Source: Rhizodiscina lignyota (lineage: Eukaryota). From it: 64,000 bases of DNA. The position numbers and the translations under genes were made by a program. A model generated the notes under the pieces. It was not told where the DNA came from. It was given only the letters and a program-made list of their open reading frames with translations, and searched no databases. Shown in pieces: positions 4,253-23,140 of this stretch. The DNA is taken from contig ML978124.1 of assembly GCA_010015805.1 (NCBI GenBank), forward strand, positions 2,356,001-2,420,000. Direction: 5' to 3'. The stretch's first letter is position 1. Each line of letters begins with the position of its first letter.

Positions 4253-6315
4253 ATGGCTATGAAGACCGGACGTGTTGCCAGAACTAGGATTGGAGAAGAG
4301 CCGGGAAAGACCCAGAAACCCTTGACATGCCAAACATGCAGATTGCTCATGGACACAACTTCTGTAACGCCAACCTCAAGCACGATGTCGATGGCCAATC
4401 TCGCGGCATCAAGGAAGTCGGGTTGCGTTGGATGTGGGCTGCTCTATGACGCAATCGAGTGGGCAGATCAACGGCCGCCTATCGAAGAGAAGGAAGAGGG
4501 GAAAGAGCAGGGCGAAGACACTTTAGTAGAACTGAGTAGAGTACATCATGAGTACCACCACGACCTCCAAAGGGCGAAATGGTCTTGGAGCCTGGAGCTA
4601 TTTGCAGTCGAAGGTAGGATTGAACTATGCACTCGCTGAATCTGTTGATCACAAGAGCCTCAGGTGATCCGTGTCCATGGTCTGGTGTAAGATACGGAAA
4701 GCACATGTCTGGGAACACGGGCTCAGAGGAGGCGCTCTCAAAATGTCAACAATGGCTAAAGGATTGCGATGAAAACCATGAAAGATGTCGACAGTATCTT
4801 AACAGTCCGCTTCCATCACGTGTCTTGGATCTTGGAGACGCAAAAGCCAACCTTTGCAAGGATGTGAAGTTGCACGAATCCGCACCTTCTGAGCGGGCTT
4901 CTTATACCACGCTAAGCTATTGCTGGGGTGGCGAGAAATTCATTACGACGACAGCTTCCACGCTCTCCGAGAGGAAGGCCAACATAGATTGGTCGGAGTT
5001 GCCGGCTGTTTTCCAAGACATCGTTACTTTCTGCCGCCGCATCGGTGTACGGTATCTGTGGATAGATGCATTATGCATTCTTCAGGATTCGAAGGATGAT
5101 TGGCGAAAAGAGGCATCGCGGATGAAAGACTACTACAGCAACGCATACATCAGCCTAAGCGCGGCGAAAGCCTCTCGTCCTTCTGAAGGTTGCTATACGG
5201 GTCATCTGCCTTGGGGCTATAAATCCCATACGCTCCGCTCCCCTCCGAAGGCGAAGTTTCCATATGCGATTCATGTCCGTCGAACTCGATACTTTGAACG
5301 ACCTCCAATCCATGAGCGAGCATGGTGTTTCCAAGAGCACGAGCTGCCGTCACGTGTTCTCATGTTCAGGGGAATGGAACTGCAATGGTACTGCTACGAG
5401 CACGCAATATGTGAGTGTGGTAACCATGAGGGAGCGCGAGAAGAAACCGAAGACCGTTTACCGAGAGAGGACTTCACGACCGTCCAATCGCATGGAGATG
5501 CAAGACTCGAGTGGTACAGGAGCATTGATGAGTACACGGATCGCAATCTGACTGTCCAGAGTGACATTCTCCCTGCGCTTTCTGGGCTGGCTGGAAAGAT
5601 GGCAGAGCGTCATCCGGGTGCAAGATATCTTGCCGGTCTGTGGGAAGACACACTGATCAGCGATTTGATGTGGTATGCCCAGCCGCTGCATCTTGACGTA
5701 CGCCCATCCTCGTATCGAGCGCCCTCGTGGTCGTGGGCATCTGTCACGGGACAGGTGTCTGGTCAGAGTTACGAAGTTACATCTGAAGATACTCATATTG
5801 AGATAACCAATGTCGAAGTATCCTTGAATTCAGCATCGAACCCATTTGGTGAAGTGGAGGGGGGCAGCCTTACGCTTCTCGGTCGTTTGACTCCAGCGGT
5901 CTTGCACTACAATGAAGATGGGGACCTAGATATTTCGACAGCCCAGTTGACCATCAAAGGCTTCGAAGACGACCGAGCATTCCAGTTCTCACCGGACTAC
6001 GACTTGACTAAGAAAGACCCTGGCAACGCTGTAATCGCAAATGGAGCGGAGGTCGATGTACTCGATGTCGCCGTGGAGAATGGTGGAGACGAAGCAGCTC
6101 TCACACCCAGCGGAGGTAAAACGTATTGCCTCGTATTGCGACATCTCGGTGGATCGACGTACGAGCGGATAGGGAGTCTTAGTAAGGAACCAGTCGGATC
6201 GCAATTTCCTGCAAGGCTGCGCGGAAGAATCGGGCACGGCGCCTCGAGACTTTTCAAGCAATCTCCGAAGGACTGGTTTAAGGAGTTGGAACCGAGGACG
6301 ATTACAATCATCTGA
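4253..6315 (+). CDS. HET domain protein (heterokaryon incompatibility family), 2 exons (intron 4614-4663)
   Basis: HET motifs LPSRVLD, YTTLSYCWG, RYLWIDALCILQD, ERAWCFQE, YLAGLW, APSWSWAS; start codon choice uncertain. Confidence 0.92.
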
Positions 6316-8115: not shown

Positions 8116-9060
8116 ATGACTGGTACACTAAATCAGAATTCCAAGCAATTGCTTAAGCACATTGAGGCATCGCTCTCCGCTTTCCAATCCTCCAACAGAC
8201 CCTTCCGGATATTATCATCCTCACGGACCACTGAAACTGCGGCCGCTCCACTGCCGAAGACCCTCTTCATACTTGACTCATCATACAATCCTCCAAGTAA
8301 GGCCCACTTCGCTCTCGCATATGCTGCTCTCGCCGGTCCCTCTGCCCAGCGCGAACCTAAGCCTCACCGGCTACTGCTCCTCTTCAGCACGCAGAATGCC
8401 GACAAGGCCGCGAAACCGGCTAGCTTTAGCCAGCGGCTTGCGATGATGGGACGATTGATGGAGGACCTGGCCAGTGAGATAGGAAAAGTACGGAAAGACG
8501 AGAATGTAGACATTGACATTGGCGTCACCACCTCGCCATACTATGTCGGCAAGTCACAAGCGATCGAGGCCTGCGATCCTCCAGCCTATCCATCAAAGCC
8601 TAATCACGTGCATATCATCGGATATGATACAGTGACGAGGCTTCTAGCATCAAGGTACTATCCAGACCATCATCCTCCTCTATCAGCCTTGGAGCCCTAC
8701 TTCTGCGCCGGCCACAAGCTGCTCGTCGCGCTCCGTCCCTTGTCCTCGTCGGAGAACATGCAAGACGCGGGTTCGCAGGGGATAGATGAGCAGACAGAGT
8801 ACATCCGTAAGCTCGGCGAGGATGCGCTGGAAGCAGAAGGCTTCAAGCGGGAGTGGGCGGCGCAGATCAGTGTCTTGGAAGGTGAAGATCTCGGTTCAGC
8901 GATTGGAATCAGCTCGACGGCCATTAGAAATGCTGTGAGTGAGGAGGATTGGACAGCAGTTGGCAAGCTATGTACGCCAGGCGTGACTACTTGGTTGAAG
9001 GAAGAGAGGCCATATGAGAATAGCAGCCAGGACGTCGAGCAGAAGAGCAAGATGTCTTGA
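8116..9060 (+). CDS. POF1: Nucleotidylyltransferase (cytidylyltransferase superfamily), POF1-like NMN adenylyltransferase
   Basis: ILDSSYNPPSKAH, LLLFSTQNADK, IIGYDTVTRLL and ISSTAIR motifs. Confidence 0.78.
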   Translation: MTGTLNQNSKQLLKHIEASLSAFQSSNRPFRILSSSRTTETAAAPLPKTLFILDSSYNPPSKAHFALAYAALAGPSAQREPKPHRLLLLFSTQNADKAAKPASFSQRLAMMGRLMEDLASEIGKVRKDENVDIDIGVTTSPYYVGKSQAIEACDPPAYPSKPNHVHIIGYDTVTRLLASRYYPDHHPPLSALEPYFCAGHKLLVALRPLSSSENMQDAGSQGIDEQTEYIRKLGEDALEAEGFKREWAAQISVLEGEDLGSAIGISSTAIRNAVSEEDWTAVGKLCTPGVTTWLKEERPYENSSQDVEQKSKMS

Positions 9061-9614
9061 TGTTCAATGGCAATTCTGATTGAGAATCGCATGTCATGGA
9101 TATTGCTCTTTTGCGCATATAATCGCCAAACTAGAGACACCCTGGTTTATCGAACACTGTCCGACAAATGCATGCAGTGTCCATTACATCCAGCAGGACG
9201 ACATCACACCTAACAGGGGAAGATGCTAACCTTACGTGTCTGTTGAAGGCTAATAGCCGCGAGATATATAGTACGCGAGTCGTGAAGGATATTCTCACGA
9301 ACACCGCCTAGACTTCTGCGATAGTCGAACCGATTCGACCAACAAGGGGGATTGGTACGGGATGCCGCCCAACGCAGGTTGACTTGGTAGAATAAATCCC
9401 ACATGGCCCACTTCAATCTTTTGTGCCCGTCTTCAAGACGATACGTGAGCTAAAGTGAGAGTGAGTACGAGTCGGTTGTCCCTCACGGTCACCTTTCCTG
9501 CGTATATCAAATGTGTTTTGTCTTTATTGAGTCTAGGATATGTCTATTATACTGTATTGTACACTGCATAGATGGTACTGTATCTTACATATTGTACAGG
9601 GCCAACATAGAGCC

Positions 9615-12600
9615 TTATTGCGACACTGTGTACACTGACGGCGATTTCTCTTCCGCCTTCTTATCGTTAGCGGTCGATGCATTTGCCTCACTTTCCCATT
9701 GATCCTCATTGTACGGCTCTATAGAGACGTTTTGGAGGTCAGCTTTCTCTAACTCATCCTCAAGCCACATCATGCTTGAAGCCGGTGGAGGTTCCGCTTC
9801 GGCAGGTGTTAGCATATTTCCACCAACTCCATTGACGGGAGCTGTGCCCGTTCTGTTCTCATTACTGTCAGGTGGTGCCCATTCTACGTGATCGGTAGTA
9901 GGTTGCTCTTCTGCCTTCGAATCTTGAGACTGGAGTAGCCCAGATTGTGCACGCTCTTGACTCTTGTTCATCTCTTCCGGATTCACCTGCCCTTCTTTCG
10001 GCCAATTTGGAGGAAATATTGGGTTCGCAAATGGATCGTCATCAACACTTGCCGATACTCTTGGTAAGCTTTTCCGCACGGACCGATCTGGCACTGGCTT
10101 GAGCAATCCTGGCTCTTTGATCGTGTACCCAAGCGATTCACCGTCTCCCTCAGGCCTAAATATCGACACTTCTATCCAAGAGCGCTTCTTGCCTGCCTCA
10201 TCCTGGGCAATTTGCTCTTCAGCAGTTTCCGCAGAATCCTCAGCATCAATGATGCCCATCGCCTGGCCTTCTGTCCTCTCTAGAGCCTTCTGCAATTTCT
10301 CCCGATCTCTGATCCTCTGTAGTTGATCCGTCGTGTGCCTGGTAATCTGCCATCCCTCCAGCTCCATCTGGCGCACTGCCTTTGCAGCGGCCCCTTCATC
10401 CTGACGACTCGAATGCATATTGATAATCGTATTCCACGTAACGCCAGTTACTGGTATGTTGCGCTGGCGCATCATGGCGCGTATCTTCTCCGCTGCATCC
10501 CATCGCTTCTGGCGCACAAACGCGAAGAGGAGTGTATTCATCGTCCATACCGATGGCTCTGGCCGTTTGACGACTTTGAGGATCTCGCCGGAGGGAGATC
10601 TAACCTCGAAGCCTGAGCTCACCATTTCCTTGAGCATGGTAGGACAGAAGCGCAGGGTGTGGTATCTGCGTCCAAATATTTCGATGAAGGTATTGTAGAA
10701 ATGCTCCCGCTCGAGGCACTCTGCTATTAGGGGATCTGTCATGGCGATTTTCGTTAGGTTTTTCCACAAACCCCAGACGCGCCCGAGGCCACTTGTATCG
10801 TCGATGTTGAGCAAATAGGAATGCATCATAATGTGTAACGTCGCGGGGTCTGGTGTTAGCAACGTGACATCCAGCTCCATGTTGACTTCAGGATTGCGGT
10901 GGTGTCTGACGGGTATGCCAAGTTGTATCAATGGTGTTGGATCAAAGTATTGCAGGTAAACGTTCATGAGCATATCGAAAGACTTCAGACGAGATTGTCG
11001 CATGTGATAGGCGCCCACGCAACATAAGATCGCATTGGCGACATAGTATCTCTCCTTGGAATCCCCCGATTTTCGAACGTACTCGGAGGCGTCCACAACG
11101 ATTCTATGGATAAGGTCCGCATCGTCGCTTTTTCGAAGTCCTCGCAAAAGAAAGTCGAACGTATAACTGGTTGGCTCCAAGTTGTTCTGGACGCTCACTT
11201 CGTAAAGGCCGATAGCAGTCGGTAGATCGTCTGCTTCCACTGCGTTTAATACCAGAACGGAGGTAAGCGCCGGTGTCAATGGAATGTTCATTTCCAACAT
11301 TCTTGAGACGACATCGAGCGACGACTGATATCCATCCGCCTCGGCCATGAGCATGCGCAGGATGACATTGCAGACACTGAGAACTGGATAGGAGTCAACA
11401 GGAGCACCAAGATCGATGGCGGCCTGCAGAGCTGACAAAGCCTTTGAGCACAGACGGTCCATAGCAAACTTGTATGAAAAATGAAGAAAAGTATGAGGAC
11501 TGATCTTCACAGCACCATTAGAGGACTGTAACATGCTGAAAAGGCGAGCGACCTGGACTGTGTTGCTACGCACTAGGAGAAGTCGAATAGCTCGGTTTCT
11601 AAACATATTCTCTTGTTTTTTAACCCACCGAATCTTCGAAGTCGAAAGCATCCACTGGAGAGACGCAAGTGCTTCGTCCACATAGGTAGGATCGCGGTAC
11701 TTCCTGTTGTAAAAAGCGAAGTGCGACACGGCGAGGAGAAGGATTTGCCAATTCCGGTGGTTCTGAAATGTCGTTGCTTCGCAGACTCTCATCGCTCTTT
11801 CAGGATGGGAATGCAACACGTAGAGCATGATATGCGCCCAAGTATTTGCTCTCAGTGTATTTGAGAGGCTGCTCCATATCTTCTTCATACCCTCGATATC
11901 GTTCCTTTTGCATTCCAGAATCGGCTTGGCCCATTCAGCGGCGCGCCCATCATAGATGGCTTTCGAGGATCGCAAGTGCGCTGGGATGCTTCGGTCAAAT
12001 TGGCAAGCGAGCATAGCATAGCCTTTCTTCCAGTCCGAGGCTTCCTCCTCCCACCAGTGTGAGATTTGAATCTCCTTACTGTCTTCGAGGCCTTGGCCAA
12101 TCTTTCTAGTTACTGGAGGACTCAGCCGAACGGCTTCAAGCCAAGAACTGTAAGCGTCATGATCCATTGCGGGCGGGTTTGTTTCGATTTCCGCAAGCCA
12201 TCGACGTTGTGTGTCCAAAGGCACCGACATGTCTCGGGATTCTTCGCAGTCGTCACCAAACAGGTCCGCAATTGTATTCTCCGGTCGGTTGACGGGAGGA
12301 TTGGATGCTACCACTGGCTTGTCGGACGACACCTCATGGACGTCCGAATTGTGCACTTCTGGCTTATCCGTGTCATGCTCCGAGTTGGCATTGAAGCTGT
12401 GGATCGGATGCCGCAAAGCTTCCCGCAGGACCCCACGCCCAGGTGCCGATACCTGTCCCTGCTCTTTACTTCTCTCCAATCCATTATGTGCCGCATTTGT
12501 GTTGTATCCTCTCCTTGCGCGTATATACCGTGGCCAGAAGACGAGGAGTCGGTTTGCGGGAGGTGCGCGGATAGGAGAGTTTTGGCTGCAAAGTGAAGCG

Positions 12601-12626
12601 ACATGTGCGAGTGATTGCCGTCGCAT
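9615..12626 (-). CDS. Pentatricopeptide repeat (PPR) protein, probably mitochondrial
   Basis: 1003-aa ORF with Arg-rich N-terminus and PPR-like motifs (PTSYTFDFLLRG, PSVWTMNTLLFAF, VTGVTWNTIINMH). Confidence 0.8.
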   Translation of the reverse strand: MRRQSLAHVASLCSQNSPIRAPPANRLLVFWPRYIRARRGYNTNAAHNGLERSKEQGQVSAPGRGVLREALRHPIHSFNANSEHDTDKPEVHNSDVHEVSSDKPVVASNPPVNRPENTIADLFGDDCEESRDMSVPLDTQRRWLAEIETNPPAMDHDAYSSWLEAVRLSPPVTRKIGQGLEDSKEIQISHWWEEEASDWKKGYAMLACQFDRSIPAHLRSSKAIYDGRAAEWAKPILECKRNDIEGMKKIWSSLSNTLRANTWAHIMLYVLHSHPERAMRVCEATTFQNHRNWQILLLAVSHFAFYNRKYRDPTYVDEALASLQWMLSTSKIRWVKKQENMFRNRAIRLLLVRSNTVQVARLFSMLQSSNGAVKISPHTFLHFSYKFAMDRLCSKALSALQAAIDLGAPVDSYPVLSVCNVILRMLMAEADGYQSSLDVVSRMLEMNIPLTPALTSVLVLNAVEADDLPTAIGLYEVSVQNNLEPTSYTFDFLLRGLRKSDDADLIHRIVVDASEYVRKSGDSKERYYVANAILCCVGAYHMRQSRLKSFDMLMNVYLQYFDPTPLIQLGIPVRHHRNPEVNMELDVTLLTPDPATLHIMMHSYLLNIDDTSGLGRVWGLWKNLTKIAMTDPLIAECLEREHFYNTFIEIFGRRYHTLRFCPTMLKEMVSSGFEVRSPSGEILKVVKRPEPSVWTMNTLLFAFVRQKRWDAAEKIRAMMRQRNIPVTGVTWNTIINMHSSRQDEGAAAKAVRQMELEGWQITRHTTDQLQRIRDREKLQKALERTEGQAMGIIDAEDSAETAEEQIAQDEAGKKRSWIEVSIFRPEGDGESLGYTIKEPGLLKPVPDRSVRKSLPRVSASVDDDPFANPIFPPNWPKEGQVNPEEMNKSQERAQSGLLQSQDSKAEEQPTTDHVEWAPPDSNENRTGTAPVNGVGGNMLTPAEAEPPPASSMMWLEDELEKADLQNVSIEPYNEDQWESEANASTANDKKAEEKSPSVYTVSQ

Positions 12627-12891
12627 AAAGATTAAGATATGTATTCAGCACCGCTCTACCGTGCCATTCTGTCTCGTTGTGTTGAAAGTTGCGATGAAAC
12701 GCAAGATGCAAGGTCGCGGTTCGGGCTCGTAAGAAAAAAGTTCAGGCATTTGGCGCGCCGCGCTCTTGACTCCACCACCCACCACTTTAACATCTTTTCT
12801 CCAACTTCCTTGCATCCGCAACAACACCTCCACCGAGAAATTCACCGCTCATCGCGAGCCTTGCTAAATTTCAGGTTAGCTGTTATACAAC

Positions 12892-13602
12892 ATGTCCTCT
12901 CGCAAAACCCTCGCCGCAGCGACAGAGGATCGCAAAGCGCGTCTCGCGCAGCTCAAGTCTCTCAAGCGCAAACAACCAAGCTACGACCAGCCAGGCGAGG
13001 GCCCCGACAAGGAAGATGGCCCTCCTCCCTCTAAAATTCAGAAATCTCCAACCCCAGAACTATCAGGTGCGGATCTTGCCGCTGTCGCAGCTTCCAAGAC
13101 GACTGACCGCTACCTCTCCGGCCGCAACTTCGACGCCGCAAATCGAGGCCCAAAGCTTGGGTTCGAAAACGCGCCTTCAGAAGGAAAAGTCACGCTCGAG
13201 GCGCAGGCCGCAGAGATCGCAGCGCAAACTAAGGCGGAAGCGGAGGCGGAGGAGGACGTGAACAAGCCGATCGATCTGTTTAGCTTGCAGCCCAAGAAGC
13301 CGAATTGGGACCTTAAACGCGACCTGGATGCGAAGCTGAAGATTCTGAACGTCAGGACGAATAATGCGATCGCGCAGCTAGTGAGGCAGCGCATCGACGC
13401 ACAGAAAGCAAAGGCATTGGAGGCGAAGAAGGGCAAGAAGAATGGTGATGGTGGAGGAACGGATGGCGAGGCTGGTGAAGAGGTAGAAGAAGTGGGAATG
13501 GAGGGTGTTGCGCTTGTGGAGGCGATGCATGTGAGAGAGAGGGAGCAGGAAGAAGAGGCTCGAATGGAGCAAGAGCTGGATGAGGTGTTGGCGGGATCGT
13601 GA
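12892..13602 (+). CDS. cwf18: Pre-mRNA splicing factor Cwf18
   Basis: DRKARLAQLKSLKRK, YLSGRNFD and IDLFSLQPKKPNWDLKRDL are Cwf18/CCDC12 signatures. Confidence 0.9.
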   Translation: MSSRKTLAAATEDRKARLAQLKSLKRKQPSYDQPGEGPDKEDGPPPSKIQKSPTPELSGADLAAVAASKTTDRYLSGRNFDAANRGPKLGFENAPSEGKVTLEAQAAEIAAQTKAEAEAEEDVNKPIDLFSLQPKKPNWDLKRDLDAKLKILNVRTNNAIAQLVRQRIDAQKAKALEAKKGKKNGDGGGTDGEAGEEVEEVGMEGVALVEAMHVREREQEEEARMEQELDEVLAGS

Positions 13603-14901
13603 ATGTGTTCAGTTTCGGCAGTCTTGACAACTGTCACGCTTCAACATATCGTTTCTGGACACTCCAGGGCAAACTCCCTTGCTCATAGCATGCTGTAAGG
13701 AGGATTTTAGCTGCGCTCTGGACGTTGCGCAAGGGCAAAAGACGGCTCACCTGACGGCGATTCAGGTTCGTCCCTTGTCCGTTCTAACCTTTGAATTATG
13801 AGTAGTCAATCTTCTGTGCCCAAGGGGGATTCTAGTAAGATCTCGTAGATTGAACGATCATCTCAAAGCTCACTCTCCAGACGTTCATGTGATGCAACTT
13901 TTTAGTGATACTCATACGAACTACATATTCTAACTCAGAACGCGAGGATATCCAACGAGACCAGCAATATGGTAACGAGTCGACTGAGAAGGTATTGTCG
14001 TCGCTCTCAGAACCACTAATCAAGACATGCATTAGGCTCTTATTTGCAGTTTTCTAAGAATGGTGTATCGAAAGGAATGTGGCCGCTTGGGGGAGTATAT
14101 GAGAATAAGGGAGCACTTGCATGTATATAAACTACCAGTAACTTGTTAAATGGAAATATATCGATAGTTGATTCACATCCCTAAATGTCTTGTGGATGTA
14201 TTAAATGCTAAGTTCCTATGAGATCATTACGCCTGAACGATTGAGGCGGAACTTATGCTTCGCGTTAAAGCTCATGTCCTGTGAACCACTTATCAGAGTA
14301 TTCATCAACATAAGAAATAATTCATTTACTAAGTATGAGCGCGCCATTTTGCACTACTCTATCAAACAATATAGTGCCATGATTCGCAAAAATCGCCCTG
14401 TAGCTTTGTTGCACCTTCTCTACATTGTCTGCCCATATGACTTCCTAACTACGCGTTTGCTCGCCGTAAATAATAGAATCCTTTTTAATTCGCATTACGT
14501 ACTATCATCTTAACTGATGGCTAAGCTATGGGTACATAGTAGCTAGAATGCAGGTGCATAGACAAATGAGTTAGGTATATGTATAAAATTAGATTATAGA
14601 TACATAGGCACCTATAATAATGGTATAGGACGACCTCGGGTTATGTACAACGGCACCCAAAAAAAAAGGGATTGCCAGGAGATTAGCAAAATAAAGACTA
14701 TGGACTTATTTTAATAACAAGTAGTTGATCTACTCGAAAGAATACGTAGAGTTTCATTAAATTTACCCACATTGAAGGCGAAAATGCAACCTTACCACAT
14801 ACCATTTTTACGTCTCAACTCATAACAACACCCAAAAAAAAACTGGAGCTACGATTTTTACTGCATTCGATAGAGCTCATCGAGATACATCCAAAAATAT
14901 A

Positions 14902-15042
14902 GGGCTTGTCCGTGGATCGAACACGGGGCCTCCTGCAAGATAGAAAAAACCCAAAGCAGGAATCATACCACTCCAGAGGAAGTTAGCTCAGCGTCAGAAT
15001 TGATGGGACGGGAAAAGGAACACCAACCTAGACCAACAAGCC
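14902..15042 (-). tRNA. tRNA-Pro(TGG) in three exons (15042-15028, 14970-14950, 14937-14902), with a 57-nt D-loop intron and a 12-nt anticodon-loop intron
   Basis: Joined exons give GGCTTGTTGGTCTAG-TGGTATGATTCCTGCTTTGGG-TGCAGGAGGCCCCGTGTTCGATCCACGGACAAGCCC (72 nt): acceptor stem GGCTTGT/ACAAGCC, anticodon stem CCTGC/GCAGG, anticodon TGG, T arm CCGTG-TTCGATC-CACGG; T5 run just downstream. Confidence 0.88.
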
Positions 15043-15713
15043 GAAAACTTGCCGATTTAAAACCCTTATCTCGAATATATATCGTATTACAAAGATTGTT
15101 GGGACGGGACGGAAACGGGCCTTAGGGACTTTTGATAAAATCAAAAATTTCACAACTTTAATTAACTGGGTAGTACGTCACTTGCTTTTATCAATAGAAA
15201 AGCCTGATTTATTTAACTCCAATTATTAACTCCGATGTATTTGCAAATATCTACCCTTTTTTTTCAAGGAACGGGCAAGTTGTAAGGGCTACGGATAGAG
15301 GGTTGAATTTCCTTTCGTAGAGGGAGCGAGCGAGCGCATGGTTTATAATTTCATTCTTTAAGAGCTACATATTAAAAGCCAATTTGCAACTACATTAAAT
15401 TATATATTCATAACTAGATGAAATCTCTGTCCGACAGGACCGGACGAAAAGCCTGAAAATGGGAGTGGTTGCCGAATAAAAGCCGAGCTCTAATATACGA
15501 GCTGTGAAATGGCCCTTGGAGCACATCCATTGTTCAAGTATTCAACTTCATTCCGCAGCATTTAAGTCGCACAATCGGGTCTTTATTGGTATTGTTCCTA
15601 TTGTGTTTAGTATAGCAAATATATTTCTAATATATTCCCAGGCCATACAATTCTCGCTCAATGCCTCCATATCTTCTGTTACCTCTATTACCTCTTCAAC
15701 ACGTCTACCCAAG

Positions 15714-16565
15714 ATGACAGCAAACCCAACAATTCTCTACTTCGTACCCGAGTCCGTACCCGGCAAAATCAAATCCGACATCACAGAGCGTCTCGTGCAC
15801 GCCTTCGATGCTACGCCGCTAGGTCAATGGGGCTTGGAACACAGGCTATTTCGCAGCTCCGCGGCGACGAAAGAAACCGTTGAAAAGGATGGCAGAAAAG
15901 CGCAGGAATGGCGCTATTTGCATCTACTACAGATGAACATGGGACGCAATGACCTCCTCGGCACCGGGAACGAAGGACACGATGACGTTGCGCTGGTGTG
16001 CTTCTCAGACAGCGGGAGTAGCCTCCCGCCAGTCCCAAAAGCATCCAACACGAATACGGATGTGAAGAAAGAGGATGGTGAAGAAAAGGTCAACGAAGAG
16101 ATGGAGAAGGAGGATTTGCCGATAACATCGATCCCCGCATTCCAATTGCCGGAATATAGCGCGATGCTCAGCACGAAAATGGGCGGGCTGTGGACCCCAC
16201 GTGCCGCGGTACACGTCGCGAACGGTTCCAGCTACGTGATTGGCGATGACAAATTTCTTGTCAGGGTTGGGGAGGTGCGGCAGAGGACTGGGCCGGGCGG
16301 ACAACAGCAAGGTGTTAAAGGTGTTGTTGTGGCCATTGAGATGGTTGGCGCGTCTGATGTTGATAGTGGGGATAAAGGGCTCTCAGACGACGAGAGGGAA
16401 AAGGCAGAAGAGGAAGAGGCAGAATATATGGATCAGATGATTAGGGGGCTGTGGAGGGAGCTCGGGACGGATGGAGGAAAGGAGTTTGCGACCAAAAGGG
16501 GCAAATCGCGGGATGGAGATGAGATTGTAAGGCAGTGGTGTCAGGTGTTGAAGCTAAGAGGATGA
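15714..16565 (+). CDS. MED20: Mediator complex subunit Med20 (Srb2)-like
   Basis: GQWGLEHRLFR and LWTPRAAVHVANGSSYVIG..FLVRVGEVRQ...KGVVVAIE resemble fungal Med20; ATG in AAGATG context at 15714. Confidence 0.7.
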   Translation: MTANPTILYFVPESVPGKIKSDITERLVHAFDATPLGQWGLEHRLFRSSAATKETVEKDGRKAQEWRYLHLLQMNMGRNDLLGTGNEGHDDVALVCFSDSGSSLPPVPKASNTNTDVKKEDGEEKVNEEMEKEDLPITSIPAFQLPEYSAMLSTKMGGLWTPRAAVHVANGSSYVIGDDKFLVRVGEVRQRTGPGGQQQGVKGVVVAIEMVGASDVDSGDKGLSDDEREKAEEEEAEYMDQMIRGLWRELGTDGGKEFATKRGKSRDGDEIVRQWCQVLKLRG

Positions 16566-16586
16566 TTAGATACTACATTGTTTGCA

Positions 16587-17886
16587 ATGGGCCTCTGTGA
16601 AGGCGGCAATGGAGGTCAATTAGTTGCAGTTTGCCCTCTGGTAACCTATCCGATACCCCAGCTGCAGCTATATGCTGAGAATGTATTCAATGGCTTGGAC
16701 CTCGACGGCGCGTTATCGGAAGCAGATTTCCAATAGTATGACCTTGAAGCCATCTCAGAGGATGAATCGCCTGAAGACGGGAGCTCATCGGAAGAACAAT
16801 TGTCTGACGAAGACTATTCGTTTGAAGTTGAACCTTCGCGCGAGGAAGACTGTTGGGGCTTCGACAGAGAGTGGCTACCTGATGCTGAAGAGGACAATGA
16901 CTCCGAAGACGGCCACGGTATCAGGGTGACGGGAAGGACCAGGATGATGACGGCTCTGAAGCTGAAGACTTCGATGACCCCAAAGGTGAGGACGATGATG
17001 ACTCCGGACAATACTCAAACTAACGGTCTAGTTCCTCAACTTCTTCTCACTACAGGAGACTTTCATGAATCACTGGAGCAGCTTCAGAAGGAACTTGAAA
17101 CGCGTATGAGCGCCATTGCTAAGGAGAACGGATGCCCCTGTCCAATCGGAGATATCTGCATACCAAAGGGCTTGAAAGTCTTACACCTACTCAACATATC
17201 GGCGAAATTCCCCAGACGCAAGAACTGGAATAAGGCATGGCAACCGTCACTACTCCACGATCCAGCATACTCGATAAAGCAGATTCTTCTTGAGATTTTT
17301 GCAGATATTGGCAGTGATGCGCTCTAACGTCTAATGGATTCAATTCCCATGAAACTTTGGCATCTCCCGAAAGATGGCAGGCGCTTTAGAGGAGACGCGA
17401 TCTGGAGAAACTCGCCATTCTTACCTGTTTGCGAGAGGTGGTTCGAAGCTGTCCTGGATCTTCTGGTTCAAAATGGCTTGGAGGAGATCGTCGTGTACGG
17501 TATTCTAGCTCATAACACGACAAGACGGTAGATGAAAAAGTACTCGGAGTATGCTGGTTCGGTTCAACTGACCTGTGTTAATCATCCTGAATTCGTTGGA
17601 TTGTATGCTTCCGATGCAGAATTTGAGGAGAATATCGACAAGCTTGTCAAGGTCAGAGAGGAACATGGTCTTGAGGTGCATACGGAATAGATGCGCAGTC
17701 CGCGCAAGGTGAAGAAGCGTCCATATTAAGGACACATCCCTACCCGTGTTTGGAGGAGTATTCGGCATGTTGAGGAATCTATTCATCCCAACTTACGCCA
17801 ACTTAGAAAACTCGTACATTTGGCTGCTCAGCTTTCTTCAACAAAGAGCACCCCGAATACGCAGGTACACTGCAAATGTCAATAGC
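16587..17886 (+). pseudogene. Decayed gene of unknown function with an acidic N-terminal region
   Basis: One protein-like frame interrupted by isolated stops (about 16734 TAG, 17325 TAA, 17529 TAG, about 17688 TAG, about 17727 TAA); the Asp/Glu-rich tract slips into another frame around 16920-17020; boundaries approximate. Confidence 0.5.
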
Positions 17887-20800
17887 CATTACACCTGACA
17901 AGGCACACTTGTGTTCATTCCAAGCCACTTATAATGCAAATGGTTCTTCTAACTCCATACGACTTATCCCTAGCCGTTGTACTAAAGCATCATCGGCATT
18001 CTATCCCGTCACTGTTCAACACCATAGAGCACATGATCTCCGCTTGGTTCCTAGGATGGTTTCCCGGAGTCCTTTCGCGTAGGTGTTGGCGCTGGTATCG
18101 ATGACAGTTTGATAAGTGGCTACGAGGTAATATTTATAGAGAGAAAATTTGGGTGTGCAAGCAGTGAAAGCTGAGACGACGAGTCACAAGCAGAATTTAA
18201 AGTGTCCTATGAAATACTAACTCTGTCATCAGGACGAATACTGACGCCGTCATTTCTGGAACCACCGCCGCAGGCCCGCAATGTCATATTGTTTTGACGG
18301 TCATGGAGGTGGGCGATCGTGAGACGCAGGCTCCGGGCCTAGCGCAGCAGGAGTTCTGGACATGAGATGGTATCGTACGCCTTCGCTTTCCCTGGTTCAG
18401 GATGCTGGGCCAACGGAAAGGGCCAAAGCTCATAAAGTTGGGATGAGGACAGCCAACCCGCCGACGAGAGTGGTTGAGAGGGCTTGAATTGCCCTCGTTA
18501 GGTGTCAATCCTCACTTTGCGTGTCGTATTCGTCTACTGTTCGTGGCGAATGAAGTTGTCAAGGATAGCTGGTATTCCGAGAATCTCTCCCTGACTTCTT
18601 GGTGTGGTGTTTCGATCAGGTCTCAATGCTTCACACAAACTTATACAACTCCGCCGGAGATGGAAACGTCGTCAAGGTAGAATCAGCCCTGTCGAGTCAG
18701 CCCGTACAACGAGTGAGCGAGAGGGAAAGCAGAGTGCCATTTCTATCCTGCATGAATGGCATTTGTGTTCGAAATTCATCATCGTCTGGTATACAGAAAC
18801 TCCCGCAAGGAAGTCCCTTCAAGCCGTCTCACACCCGTCACTGGCTCCTGAAAACTAGACGCGGTTAAACCAGCAGCATGTTCCCGTCTGAGAATCGTCG
18901 TGATGCGCACGGAGTACATCGCTCGATGCAAACTCGGTGAAGGCATCAAGGTGCTTTGTTGAGTCCTTCATCATTAGTAGGCTTATGTTGGACATCTTCA
19001 TATTGAGAGTTGAATTACTCATGGCGAACATTCCAACTTAACAGGGAAATGATAGTGGAGACTAGAGAGGAGCATTGATGAGACGATCAGAGCTTCAACG
19101 AGGAATAACGAACGTAAAGTAAACACTTATCCTATGTTCTGTGCATACTGCGACTCAGAGACATGAGTGTATTCAGACATGCCGTACGAGGTATCGATTC
19201 GGACATGCCGTCTCAAGTGTATTCACCGCAAGACCGTCGGGAGTCTAGCCGCCTAAAGAGGCAATGTCCGATGGCTCTGGCTCTTTTGTCGGTCAAGATC
19301 TTGACCTTCCACAAAGGACGCCAAGAACACATCCAGCGGAAGTCTGGTGTCGGCACTCAATGCACATCGCACCGTCCTGACGCGGCCGTGCGGCCGTCGG
19401 CATCAAGCCGTCGGCGTTTCAGCGCAACCGTGTTTCCAGTTTCCGCATTCGTAAGGTGCGCTTCCTACCCGGTGCCGACGCACCTTACTTCCGACTTCCG
19501 ACGATATTGCCGTGGAACTCCGCTGTGCGGTTTGAGGCCATGCAGGTGTACAAATGTGTGCATGTACATAAGACAAGGAAACAGGAAAGCCCATGATGAC
19601 GACGATGCGTCGATCACGCTTTTCCGAGCCGGCCACTCGGGTCCTTGCGAGGATGTTTGCACTGCAAACGCCTAGGCCTTTGGGCAGCTTTTTGTATCCA
19701 GGGCCAGGCCTTATGTCCCCGTGGAAGGTACATTGGTACCTGGTACCTGTTTGTTTTTGCGGATGAGGAAGTATTTACGAGGGAAATAAGCCGGGTATGA
19801 GAAAGTTGACGTTGGACAATGGCAAAAATAAGAATGTGGATGAGAGGGCTGATGGCTATGGCCAGCCTGAGTTCATGCCTTGGGCCAGGAACGACAGTGC
19901 GGCATCGCATTGATGATTCATTGATGAATGACCATGCGGAAGGAGAGTTTCGCGGCTCGTGCTTTGTCGCGAATCTGATGGGCTTGTTGAGGGCATGCAA
20001 ATTCGACATGCCGAATGAGCAAGAAAGGCCGAAGGAGTGAGAATGAAAAGCTTGTTTTGGAAGGTAACGTGCTTCGGGACATGATGCTGGGAGGGGTGTG
20101 AAGGAGATTCAAGGAAGATAGGGAGGCAAATCAGATGTAAGACGCTTGGGCACGAAAGGGAGTATCGACGATTTTCGTTGTCTTGCGGAGGGTTGCTTTA
20201 TGAAAGAAAGTTTGAATTGGAGTATTACGAGATGGTGTGCTTAAAATATGACATGTGTAGGTCACCCCAAGATCAGTCGGTGATTGGCCCATTAGCGGAA
20301 GGAGAGTGACGGCAAGAGATAATCATATTATCAGATATTATCAGATCTCCATCTAGATTGTGGCAATATAGAACCCTACAGGGAAGGTCACCAGGTGTGG
20401 AGTGCTTGCGGCTCCGCAAAGAATTTGTCTTTTGGCTTGAGGTCCATGCGCTCTCTTCAGGAATTGCGGGCCGACGAAGATTGCCTGGCGACGATTTCCG
20501 TGCGAACAAGCGAATGCTGGTAAATGATGTGCGGGCCCTGCCCTTCCACCATCCGGATGAATTCCGGCAAAGACGGGCTTCGACGTCGGAAGATTCCCAA
20601 TATCTGCGCCATTCGGATGGATGGAGCCAGAGCAATAAGAAAAGGTCTCCATTAAACGGTAATGCTCTTCAGGCGAGCCGTTGCATTTAGGTAAAGACAA
20701 TTCAGGACTTGACAAAGCACGAGGTTGCGTTGGAGATCTGACAGTAACATTGCAATGGTGTCCCTGAACGCCGGAACCGAGTCCAGCGCACTGGTGTCGA

Positions 20801-23140
20801 TATGCCAGGAAGAGCGTTGCAAGTTGTTGGAGTTGGGAAGGCAGCAAATTTTGCACAGCCGCGCCGTTGGTGTTTGAAATAAACCATTCTGAAACAATGG
20901 AAGCGCTTTTCCAGAAGGCTGAGAGCAGTGAGCATGCAACTATGTCCTCCGTATAGAAAAGGCGCCGTGATTTTCAGATCATGCGCAAAATGCAGAGCCT
21001 ACGAGTCAGGGAGCGGGCGCCTGTTGATGCTTGCAGGCGCAGCTCAAGAAACTCGCCGAGCGACAAGCCGGCGCTAAAAGGAGCAGTCGGCCTACTGGAA
21101 GAACGAGAGAGCTTGCTCTGCTGCATGGCGCGGAGTCAGGGCCACACAGCTTACGCCTGACAGAAGGACAGTCGAAGCAGGCGAGCCGGGAGCGCTTCAA
21201 GGATTCTGCAGTTTATTGATCCTTCAGCCTGCTGCAGCGTTGATAGCCGCCCCTCACACCTCATTACGTGCAGGAGCAGCACCCCAGTCGCCGTTTTCCC
21301 TAATTCGCAAGCTAGTCCCGTAGGGGTCCTTGATGGTGATGCTTGCTTTCTCGCCTGCCTTTGACGCTGGACGATCGCGACGCGCTCCGGCCCAACGCCG
21401 ACGCTTCTGGCGGGACGGCACGAGCGGGGTCAAGGCGTGAGTGGTTCCAGACGGAGGAGGACGAGACGGCTAAGGTGGCTGACTCTGACGAAAGAAGGTC
21501 ACGCTGACGGCTCTGGCGCCTAGGGCGGGAGACGCAGGACGTCCCGAAAGTCCGCCATGGTGTGGTGTACTTGATAGTGAATGACGCCAGCGCTGTCACA
21601 TCAAATGCCGTTTGGCGCAGGTCCTGACGAGTTGCAAGCCGCATACGTACATGGGCGGCGGCAGAATGGCAGAACAGAGGTGGGCGGCAAGGCCACCATG
21701 TGCGATTCGCACGATGCGACGGGCGCTTAAGTTGGAGGAGGAAGCGAAAGGCGAGATGCAACAGCCAGCCACGAAGGAGCGCGCGACATGGGAAATTGAA
21801 TGCTGCTGCTGCCCTTCATTCTCTCGAGGCTGCAAGGCTCAGGAGAGCACTCGCAATTATAGCGACGGGCTCTATAGGCCTGGTTCCAGACGGGCAGAAA
21901 CGGGGTGGAAGCGCAGGATGCGGCAGTGGGCGTGGTAGGAGACGAGCGGTTGGTTGCTTGGACATGTTGCACTCGGCGCGGCCACACAGCGCGTTTTCGT
22001 TGGAAGGCGAAGCGGTGGGAAGGAATACGACGCCGCGAATGCCCCGAGCAAGTCAGCGGCCGGAGCGCGCTGGAGAGATTACGAGGATCATTCTCTCTTT
22101 CGACGCCGGCCGACATCTGCGTATCCAGCGCGGTGGTACGTCGTGGGAGGCACAGCAAGCAGAGCAAGCATCCCGGCCACTGAGCTCGGGGCCGTGCGTT
22201 GCCTCACACTCGCCCGTAGCGCTCAGCTGGCGCGACGGCGCTTAGCTGGGGGCAGTCGCGCGACGTCGGCTGAGACGCAGCGGCGCAGCTTAAGTACCTC
22301 TCCTGATTCCGCGCCGGGCAGCGGGAGTGCGAGGGAGAGGTTGTGCGGCGCACGTCGCACGGAGGAATGAGGTGCAGGCAGGCGAGTGGCAGCGCTTGCT
22401 GCAGCGCGCTTGCGGCGTCGCAGCTCTGGCGCCAGTCGACGCGCCGCTTGCGACGGAGCCGAATCACGTCGCGCCATCTCGTGCCACGCCGCCAGGGGAA
22501 GGCGCTGCACCGCACACGCTCCGCACTCGCAGCATTTGGGACTCGCAGGCCTCTCACAGCGCTGGAGCTGGCTGTTGGTGAGTGGCACGCGCCTCCGATC
22601 CGCCGAGCGCAACACCGCCCCATGGGCCCATCTGCTCGCAGGAGGAAAGTAGCTATGTACGCTCCGACGAGCTGCACCGAACTGACTGCAAAGGGCGGGC
22701 CGGCACGACGCTCGCTGCACCTGCTTCTTCTCCGAGTAGCTCTGTGCAACGCGGCGCACATATCGCAGAGGTCATATCACCGTCATAGCCGCACACTGCC
22801 GCAGCAGGCGAGCGACGCCCTCCAGTCAGCCTTAGACGCCGAGTAAGCAGGGCCCCTGGCCGCCTGGCCGTGACTGCTCCTTGACCCGACCGCGAGCGGC
22901 TAGGGTGGCATTTGAGGCCGGCGGAGGGCAGGCTGAGATGGGCGCTTGACATCGGCCAATTTTCTCTGGCCCTGCAGTGCTCCTCTGACGCCGTGCCTCG
23001 CGGCCCCAATCAGCGCATGCGACGGTGGTGATGGCATGGGCCCCCGGGCGGCGCCTGTGAGTGGGTGGAGATGGCATCGTTCGCTGCGCGTTGTGTAGTG
23101 GAGGGCAGGAGAGAAGCTGCTCTGCAGCGCGGTGCTGTGC

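Follow-up and report, generated by a model that had tools for sequence, protein, structure and literature searches.

A Proline tRNA Gene With a Probable Intron in the D Loop

The window (the whole 64-kb stretch of DNA that was analysed) contains, on its minus strand, a tRNA-Pro(TGG) gene in which 57 nt at 14971–15027 separate positions 15 and 16 of the tRNA. With a probability of roughly 0.72, we read these 57 nt as a spliceosomal intron of the U2-type GT-AG class, belonging to an old family located at 15/16 of tRNA-Pro(AGG) and tRNA-Pro(TGG) genes of ascomycete-like fungi. The gene also carries a normal anticodon intron, and the arrangement of two introns proposed in the first-pass annotation was confirmed on this strand. 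The features of the gene and its immediate surroundings are the following:

14902–15042, minus strand: tRNA-Pro(TGG) gene, 141 nt long when counted from position 1 through the discriminator base, or 72 nt without both introns (ARAGORN on the sequence without 14971–15027)
15028–15042, minus strand: exon 1, 15 nt; acceptor 5′ strand, positions 8–9 and D arm through G15, ending in ..TCTAG
14971–15027, minus strand: putative D-loop intron of spliceosomal type, 57 nt, between positions 15 and 16; donor AG/GTTGGT (the slash marks the junction), pyrimidine stretch, acceptor GAG
14982–14987, minus strand: putative branch-site motif GCTAAC; branch A at 14983, 12 nt from the last intron base
14992–14997, minus strand: second candidate branch motif, TCTGAC, 23 nt from the intron end
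14950–14970, minus strand: exon 2; remaining D loop and D stem, anticodon stem 5′ strand and loop through G37; anticodon TGG
14938–14949, minus strand: canonical 37/38 tRNA intron, TSEN type, 12 nt, with a T6 run at its start
14902–14937, minus strand: exon 3; position 38, anticodon stem 3′ strand, variable loop, T arm (B-box region), acceptor 3′ strand and discriminator C
14893–14897, minus strand: T5 run, read as RNA polymerase III terminator, 5 nt past the gene
15074–15082, minus strand: AT-rich, TATA-like stretch, ca. 32–40 nt upstream of position 1, which may be an upstream promoter element

After the 57-nt insert the minus strand resumes with TGGTATGAT, followed by the remainder of tRNA-Pro(TGG). 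It had been claimed that exact removal of the insert restores the standard proline D arm and that the stems show no decay, and both points held: after scripted excision of 14971–15027, ARAGORN calls a tRNA-Pro(tgg) of 72 bases, whose anticodon intron has 12 nt and which folds into a clean cloverleaf with standard pairs at all 20 of its 20 stem positions. Eight of the 11 positions of the A box precede the point at which the D-loop intron interrupts it, and the T arm, with the B-box region, is intact. The genes on either side, identified by their Pfam domains as cwf18 (12880–13602) and Med20 (15714–16565), are both on the plus strand, opposite to the tRNA. The window also contains, at 4627–6315 on the plus strand, a HET-domain (heterokaryon incompatibility) gene; genes of this kind are typical of filamentous ascomycetes. 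The Atlas neighbors of the window are mostly from Ascomycota, which indicates, together with this gene, a fungus of that kind.

Standard tRNA finders overlook the gene, as the first-pass annotation had anticipated. ARAGORN with default settings returned no gene across the whole window, and Rfam retrieved no tRNA at the locus either at the gathering score or at E values up to 5; likewise, Rfam found a tRNA gene at none of the 18 related metagenome loci described below. With option -i, ARAGORN reads the uncut sequence as a tRNA-Lys(ctt) with a 71-nt intron at 31/32. We rejected this candidate because its D and anticodon stems are poor and the intron site is impossible, and also because the relatives of the gene all favor proline.

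Signals of the 57-nt Insert

The boundaries of the insert can be placed in three equivalent ways, exactly one of which gives GT..AG. The GT donor context, the pyrimidine tract, the GCTAAC motif and the final AG reported earlier are all located at 14971–15027, and the first AG 3′ of the GCTAAC branch motif is the end of the intron. The donor, GTTGGT, has G at +1, T at +2, G at +5 and T at +6, together with an unusual T at +3. As for the spacing, the branch motif had been said to end 11 nt before the AG; the motif is there, but it ends 9 nt before the AG and 11 nt before the last base of the intron. To put a figure on chance, we defined an intron-like pattern as GT at the start, CTRAY at 8–25 nt from the end, no AG between and a final AG, which is matched by 12 of the 127,886 stretches of 57 nt in the window sequence, counting both strands and including real introns.

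As a comparison set we used 21 candidate mRNA-type introns of the window, a rough collection chosen by open reading frames and motifs and not from transcripts, with a median length of 63 nt (interquartile range 55–80) and branch distances mostly of 10–15 nt. The length and the branch distance of the insert match those of these rough window introns, so that it resembles a local intron. The first-pass annotation had thus correctly taken 57 nt as a typical length, although the introns of the window span a wider range than the 47–60 nt that it gave for most of them. The GAG acceptor, which it had named as a weak point, is indeed one: G at position −3 is a rare form, found in 1 of the 21 introns of the rough window set; the other 17 GT..AG inserts, from related tRNA genes, all lack it, having C or T in 15 cases and A in two. 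A depletion of T runs, considered as a possible mark of introns transcribed by RNA polymerase III, was not significant, with runs of at least four T in 1 of 14 distinct D-loop introns vs. 5 of the 21 rough mRNA introns. No second copy of the window insert was found in the 64-kb window or in ca. 84 kb of related loci.

Related Proline tRNA Genes

Metagenome contigs were scanned with a pattern consisting of TGGTCTAG, a gap of 40–70 nt and TGGTATGATTC plus the anticodon loop, leaving the content of the gap unconstrained. Of the twenty loci that matched, 18 are proline tRNA genes that an insert interrupts at the same site; the anticodon is AGG in 17 of them and TGG in one. The other two (L009 and L020) were discarded as false matches, each consisting of a normal gene and, upstream of it, an incomplete copy of the 5′ half. 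Prokaryote genomes totaling 596 billion bases contain no match to the same pattern. Separately, the first 4.3 kb of the L020 metagenome contig (positions 1–4325) consist of around 39 tRNA genes and one U6 snRNA gene placed end to end on both strands, an extreme eukaryotic tRNA array.

Counting the gene from the window, a single GT..AG placement of the D-loop insert exists in 18 of 19 genes, located at 15/16 in 17 of them and at 14/15 in L019, and all 18 contain CTRAY with the branch A at 10–15 nt from the 3′ end. The inserts are 44–57 nt long, and 10 of the 14 distinct ones have G at +5. These 14 sequences fall into about 10 groups, among which the identity of the interiors is 0.35–0.67, mostly within one standard deviation of the mean for shuffled sequences (mean 0.52, standard deviation 0.07). 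In an alignment of the genes (A1) the exons are nearly invariant, and the only invariant columns within the intron are the T of the GT and the branch A, with the G of the GT conserved at 90% or more. The first-pass annotation had proposed a comparison with relatives in which the signals should be kept while the interior diverges, and this is what the metagenome loci display, with GT, CTRAY and AG retained in those 18 genes. We take this to be selection maintaining signals of spliceosomal type inside working tRNA genes.

The comparison had been proposed for the interval between cwf18 and Med20, and this part did not succeed: a tblastx search of window positions 9000–21000 against all 20 loci gave no match at 1e-5, and the orthologous interval was not found. 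The flanks of the loci contain eukaryotic, fungus-like genes (Pfam: Pal1, GH28 glycosidase, kinases), and the nearest Atlas cluster for one of the flank proteins is mostly from Ascomycota, which gives a rough taxonomic lead. Because the flanks differ and have no synteny to the window, the loci represent distinct places in distinct genomes rather than copies of a single repeat. The FMO-like gene close to the tRNA in L008 was considered as a sign of orthology and rejected, since it is only 23% identical to the one in the window over 158 residues; L005 also has such a gene. A scan of the examined DNA for T arms with paired stems, intended for other interrupted tRNAs, returned only these proline genes.

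The one gene of the 19 without a GT..AG placement, L007 (3001–3089, minus strand), retains the donor GTAAGA, has CTCAAC in place of CTAAC and ends in GG in place of AG, and its tRNA stems are intact; it looks like a member of the family that has recently lost its splice signals. The loss of signals from an intact tRNA body implies that such genes can go dead, or are dispensable. At the donor, the window gene and L001 have GTTGGT in common, and the interiors of their introns are as alike as shuffled sequences (0.52). The sequence AGTTGG is common in D loops and A boxes; following an exon that ends in ..TAG, GTTGGT mimics it, and we speculate that this donor may be retained for the sake of the A box and the RNA polymerase III promoter.

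In six of the loci ARAGORN found no gene even after removal of the D-loop insert, and all six have one more GT..AG insert, located in the T arm. The removal of these inserts restores a perfect T arm and acceptor stem in the six loci. Two more loci have a candidate insert in the acceptor stem, whose removal restores the G1–C72 pair, an assignment to be read as that of a candidate because it rests on two exon bases only. The additional introns are as follows:

L001, position 53/54: 52 nt, GTAAGT .. GCTAAT .. CAG
L003, L014, L016, L017 and L018, position 51/52: 53 nt, GTACGT .. ACTAAT .. AAG
L005 and L010, position 71/72 (candidate): 52 nt, GTGAGG .. ACTAAT .. TAG

Some proline tRNA genes thus appear to carry three introns, two of them of the mRNA type.

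Evidence for Working tRNA Genes and Status of the Window Copy

Once the inserts are removed, 11 distinct tRNA sequences result, and standard pairing is preserved in 219 of their 220 stem cells. Compensatory double changes occur in 9 of the 20 stem pairs, including 6 of the 7 acceptor pairs, which were unconstrained by the search pattern. A run of T is the usual terminator of RNA polymerase III, and runs of at least five T lie within 25 nt of the gene end in 11 of 14 distinct trailers, vs. a background of 0.023 in the same DNA. These runs, together with the intact T-arm region, would fit transcription by RNA polymerase III.

The window copy has neither the decayed stems nor the lost terminator by which a pseudogene would be recognized, and its T6 run and GAG acceptor nevertheless keep some doubt on it. 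The T6 in its anticodon intron is the only internal run of at least five T among the 15 distinct primary transcripts compared, and it exceeds the T5 that apparently ends this gene and several of the related genes; a good part of the RNA polymerase III transcripts from the window gene might stop there. Its anticodon intron, with 12 nt, is also the shortest of the set and has no complement to the anticodon, whereas the anticodon introns of the related loci have 15–39 nt and most AGG copies carry ACCCT opposite AGGGT.

These peculiarities lend some weight to the alternative, unlikely in our opinion but the most serious of those considered, that the family is real and the window copy itself is disabled or barely expressed. 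It would then be a young pseudogene with an intact cloverleaf and weakened signals, with other tRNA-Pro(TGG) genes doing the work. The GAG acceptor, the T at donor position +3, the internal T6 and the short anticodon intron would all be expected from such a copy, and L007 illustrates that splice signals are lost before the tRNA body decays. Nonetheless, the standard pairing of all its stems, the presence of the T5 terminator and of the upstream AT-rich element, and the existence of two candidate branch sites, with the first AG after the branch coinciding with the intron end, all speak for a functional gene; additionally, the unusual donor recurs in L001 next to a dissimilar interior, and keeps G at +5 and T at +6. 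The window copy is therefore the least convincing member of the set, and may perhaps have little expression or be in the process of being lost, as also seems to be the case for L007.

Structure of the Inserts and Possible Excision Without the Spliceosome

We consider it improbable that the D-loop insert is a true intron whose excision bypasses the spliceosome and is carried out, for instance, by the tRNA endonuclease acting on a relaxed fold similar to a bulge-helix-bulge, as in Cyanidioschyzon merolae. There is precedent for it in a eukaryote, where ectopic introns of the D arm and the T arm are cut by the tRNA endonuclease (PMC3728597). We searched for the strict motif, defined as a 4-bp helix between two bulges of 3 nt each, located at the exon-intron junctions, and whichever of the equivalent placements is chosen, none of the 19 genes forms a 4-bp central helix (4 of 4 pairs) together with flanking helices. 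As a control we took the canonical anticodon introns, which do not pass the same test either; this result consequently excludes only the strict motif and leaves room for relaxed ones. The inserts do not fold in any unusual way, with z values of −2.4 to +1.7 with respect to shuffled sequences, and thus fold no better than these. In four loci (L004, L005, L008 and L012) the minimum-energy folds place CTAAC in the loop of a short hairpin (e.g., GCACGC / GCGTGC), which is absent from the window intron. Above all, excision by the endonuclease leaves unexplained why GT, CTRAY at 10–15 nt and AG have been retained in 18 of 19 genes while the rest has drifted. Self-splicing introns are far longer than 44–57 nt. 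A spliceosomal-type intron in the D loop, besides the TSEN intron, as the first-pass annotation had proposed, is therefore supported by the signals conserved among relatives and by the lack of the strict bulge-helix-bulge, and its excision would be by the spliceosome.

Least probable of all is that the insert is junk, either a chance insertion in a dead tRNA gene or part of non-functional tRNA-derived repeats, because, even though standard tools call none of these genes, an intron-like pattern arises by chance in 57 nt only about once in 10,000, it recurs in 18 of 19 genes with unrelated interiors, the stems are paired and contain compensatory changes, T-run terminators follow the genes, the differing flanks and lack of synteny are not those of copies of one repeat, and no further copy of the insert turned up in the window or the loci.

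Proposed Maturation of the Transcript

From the observed anatomy, signal conservation, cloverleaf and T runs we infer the polymerase, the splicing itself and the order of the steps, which would be as follows. RNA polymerase III would transcribe the gene from its internal promoter and end at the T run behind it. The spliceosome would then excise the D-loop intron as a lariat, using the AG/GT donor, the CTAAC branch and the first AG downstream. Before this removal neither the docking of the D loop with the T loop nor the folding of the tRNA body could take place; TSEN would then measure the folded body and cut the 37/38 intron, and the tRNA ligase would join the halves. The gene would thus need two unrelated splicing machineries.

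The order of these steps derives from the geometry of the tRNA. The tRNA endonuclease measures its cuts from the folded tRNA body, and 57 nt inserted between G15 and G18 should block the fold that it needs, so that the D-loop intron would have to be removed first and the 37/38 intron last. The eukaryotic enzyme has also been held to depend on the limited location of introns at 37/38 (PMC3728597). As for the first splicing step, the spliceosome would have to be recruited to a transcript of RNA polymerase III. To our knowledge, such recruitment is known only for U6.

A Probable Hidden Class of Proline tRNA Genes

Proline tRNA genes with introns of the spliceosomal type apparently constitute a widespread and undescribed family. 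The first-pass annotation was aware of no description of such introns for tRNA, and we found no report of spliceosomal introns in tRNA genes in the full-text literature outside subscription-only papers. Taking all the loci together, we think there is a good chance that filamentous ascomycetes possess a hidden class of proline tRNA genes, transcribed by RNA polymerase III, that need the spliceosome. These genes would contain one or two spliceosomal introns (in the D loop, in the T arm and perhaps in the acceptor stem) in addition to the intron cut by the endonuclease, and the D-loop intron would have been inherited for long across lineages and in two isoacceptors.

Since tRNA finders skip these genes, annotations would list too few proline tRNAs for these fungi, and tRNA gene counts in the fungi concerned are probably wrong. 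If our reading is true, these genes would be a natural exception to the separation of spliceosomal and tRNA introns, linking two processing pathways thought to be unrelated. The spliceosome would then act on a second class of RNA polymerase III transcripts besides U6, and one without a place in the spliceosome. The genes would also offer a natural test bed for the order of steps in tRNA maturation, and other tRNA types and other eukaryotes may hold more of them.

Comparison With Known Systems

A 2023 review (PMC10275265) describes eukaryotic tRNA introns as located at 37/38 and lacking conserved terminal motifs. The 12-nt intron at 14938–14949 and the 15–39-nt anticodon introns of the related loci belong to this kind, whereas the 57-nt insert differs from it both in its location at 15/16 and in its conserved terminal and branch motifs. 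A 2025 publication (PMC12530127) treats spliceosomal, tRNA and XBP1 introns as three unrelated types and places the spliceosomal ones in mRNAs and other transcripts of RNA polymerase II.

The nuclear tRNA genes of the red alga Cyanidioschyzon merolae can hold as many as three introns, distributed over the D arm, the 37/38 site and the T arm, and are overlooked by ordinary finders (Soma et al., 2013, PMC3728597; reviewed in PMC3978253). The ectopic introns belong to the bulge-helix-bulge type, and it is the tRNA endonuclease that cuts them (PMC3728597, PMC3978253), and in this alga the 37/38 intron is always processed last (PMC3728597). The proline genes resemble them in having multiple nuclear tRNA introns, including those of the D arm and the T arm, and in being missed by finders. 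However, the algal introns have the bulge-helix-bulge, whereas the fungal inserts lack the strict motif and keep GT, CTRAY and AG.

Spliceosomal introns also occur in the rDNA of ascomycetes, mainly of lichen-forming fungi (Bhattacharya et al., 2000, as cited in PMC5855946 and PMC6652019). These are likewise introns of the spliceosomal type in a structural-RNA gene of filamentous ascomycetes that is not transcribed by RNA polymerase II; they reside, however, in transcripts of RNA polymerase I, whereas those described here are in tRNA.

A parallel in terms of polymerase would be that with the U6 snRNA genes of Schizosaccharomyces pombe and many other fungi, which RNA polymerase III transcribes and which contain up to four spliceosomal introns at varied positions, some of them shared by descent (PMC5855946; Tani and Ohshima, 1989, 1991, and Canzler et al., 2016, as summarized therein). 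The non-coding hosts of spliceosomal introns listed in that review are the U6, U2, U5, U1 and rRNA genes, and tRNA does not appear in its list (PMC5855946). As proposed here for the proline tRNA genes, U6 is a small non-coding RNA made by RNA polymerase III and interrupted by short introns. The gain of introns in U6 is usually explained by reverse splicing, given its position at the spliceosome's catalytic center. The tRNA, in contrast, has no place in that center, and the proline tRNA transcript also contains a canonical tRNA intron, such that its maturation would involve two splicing systems.
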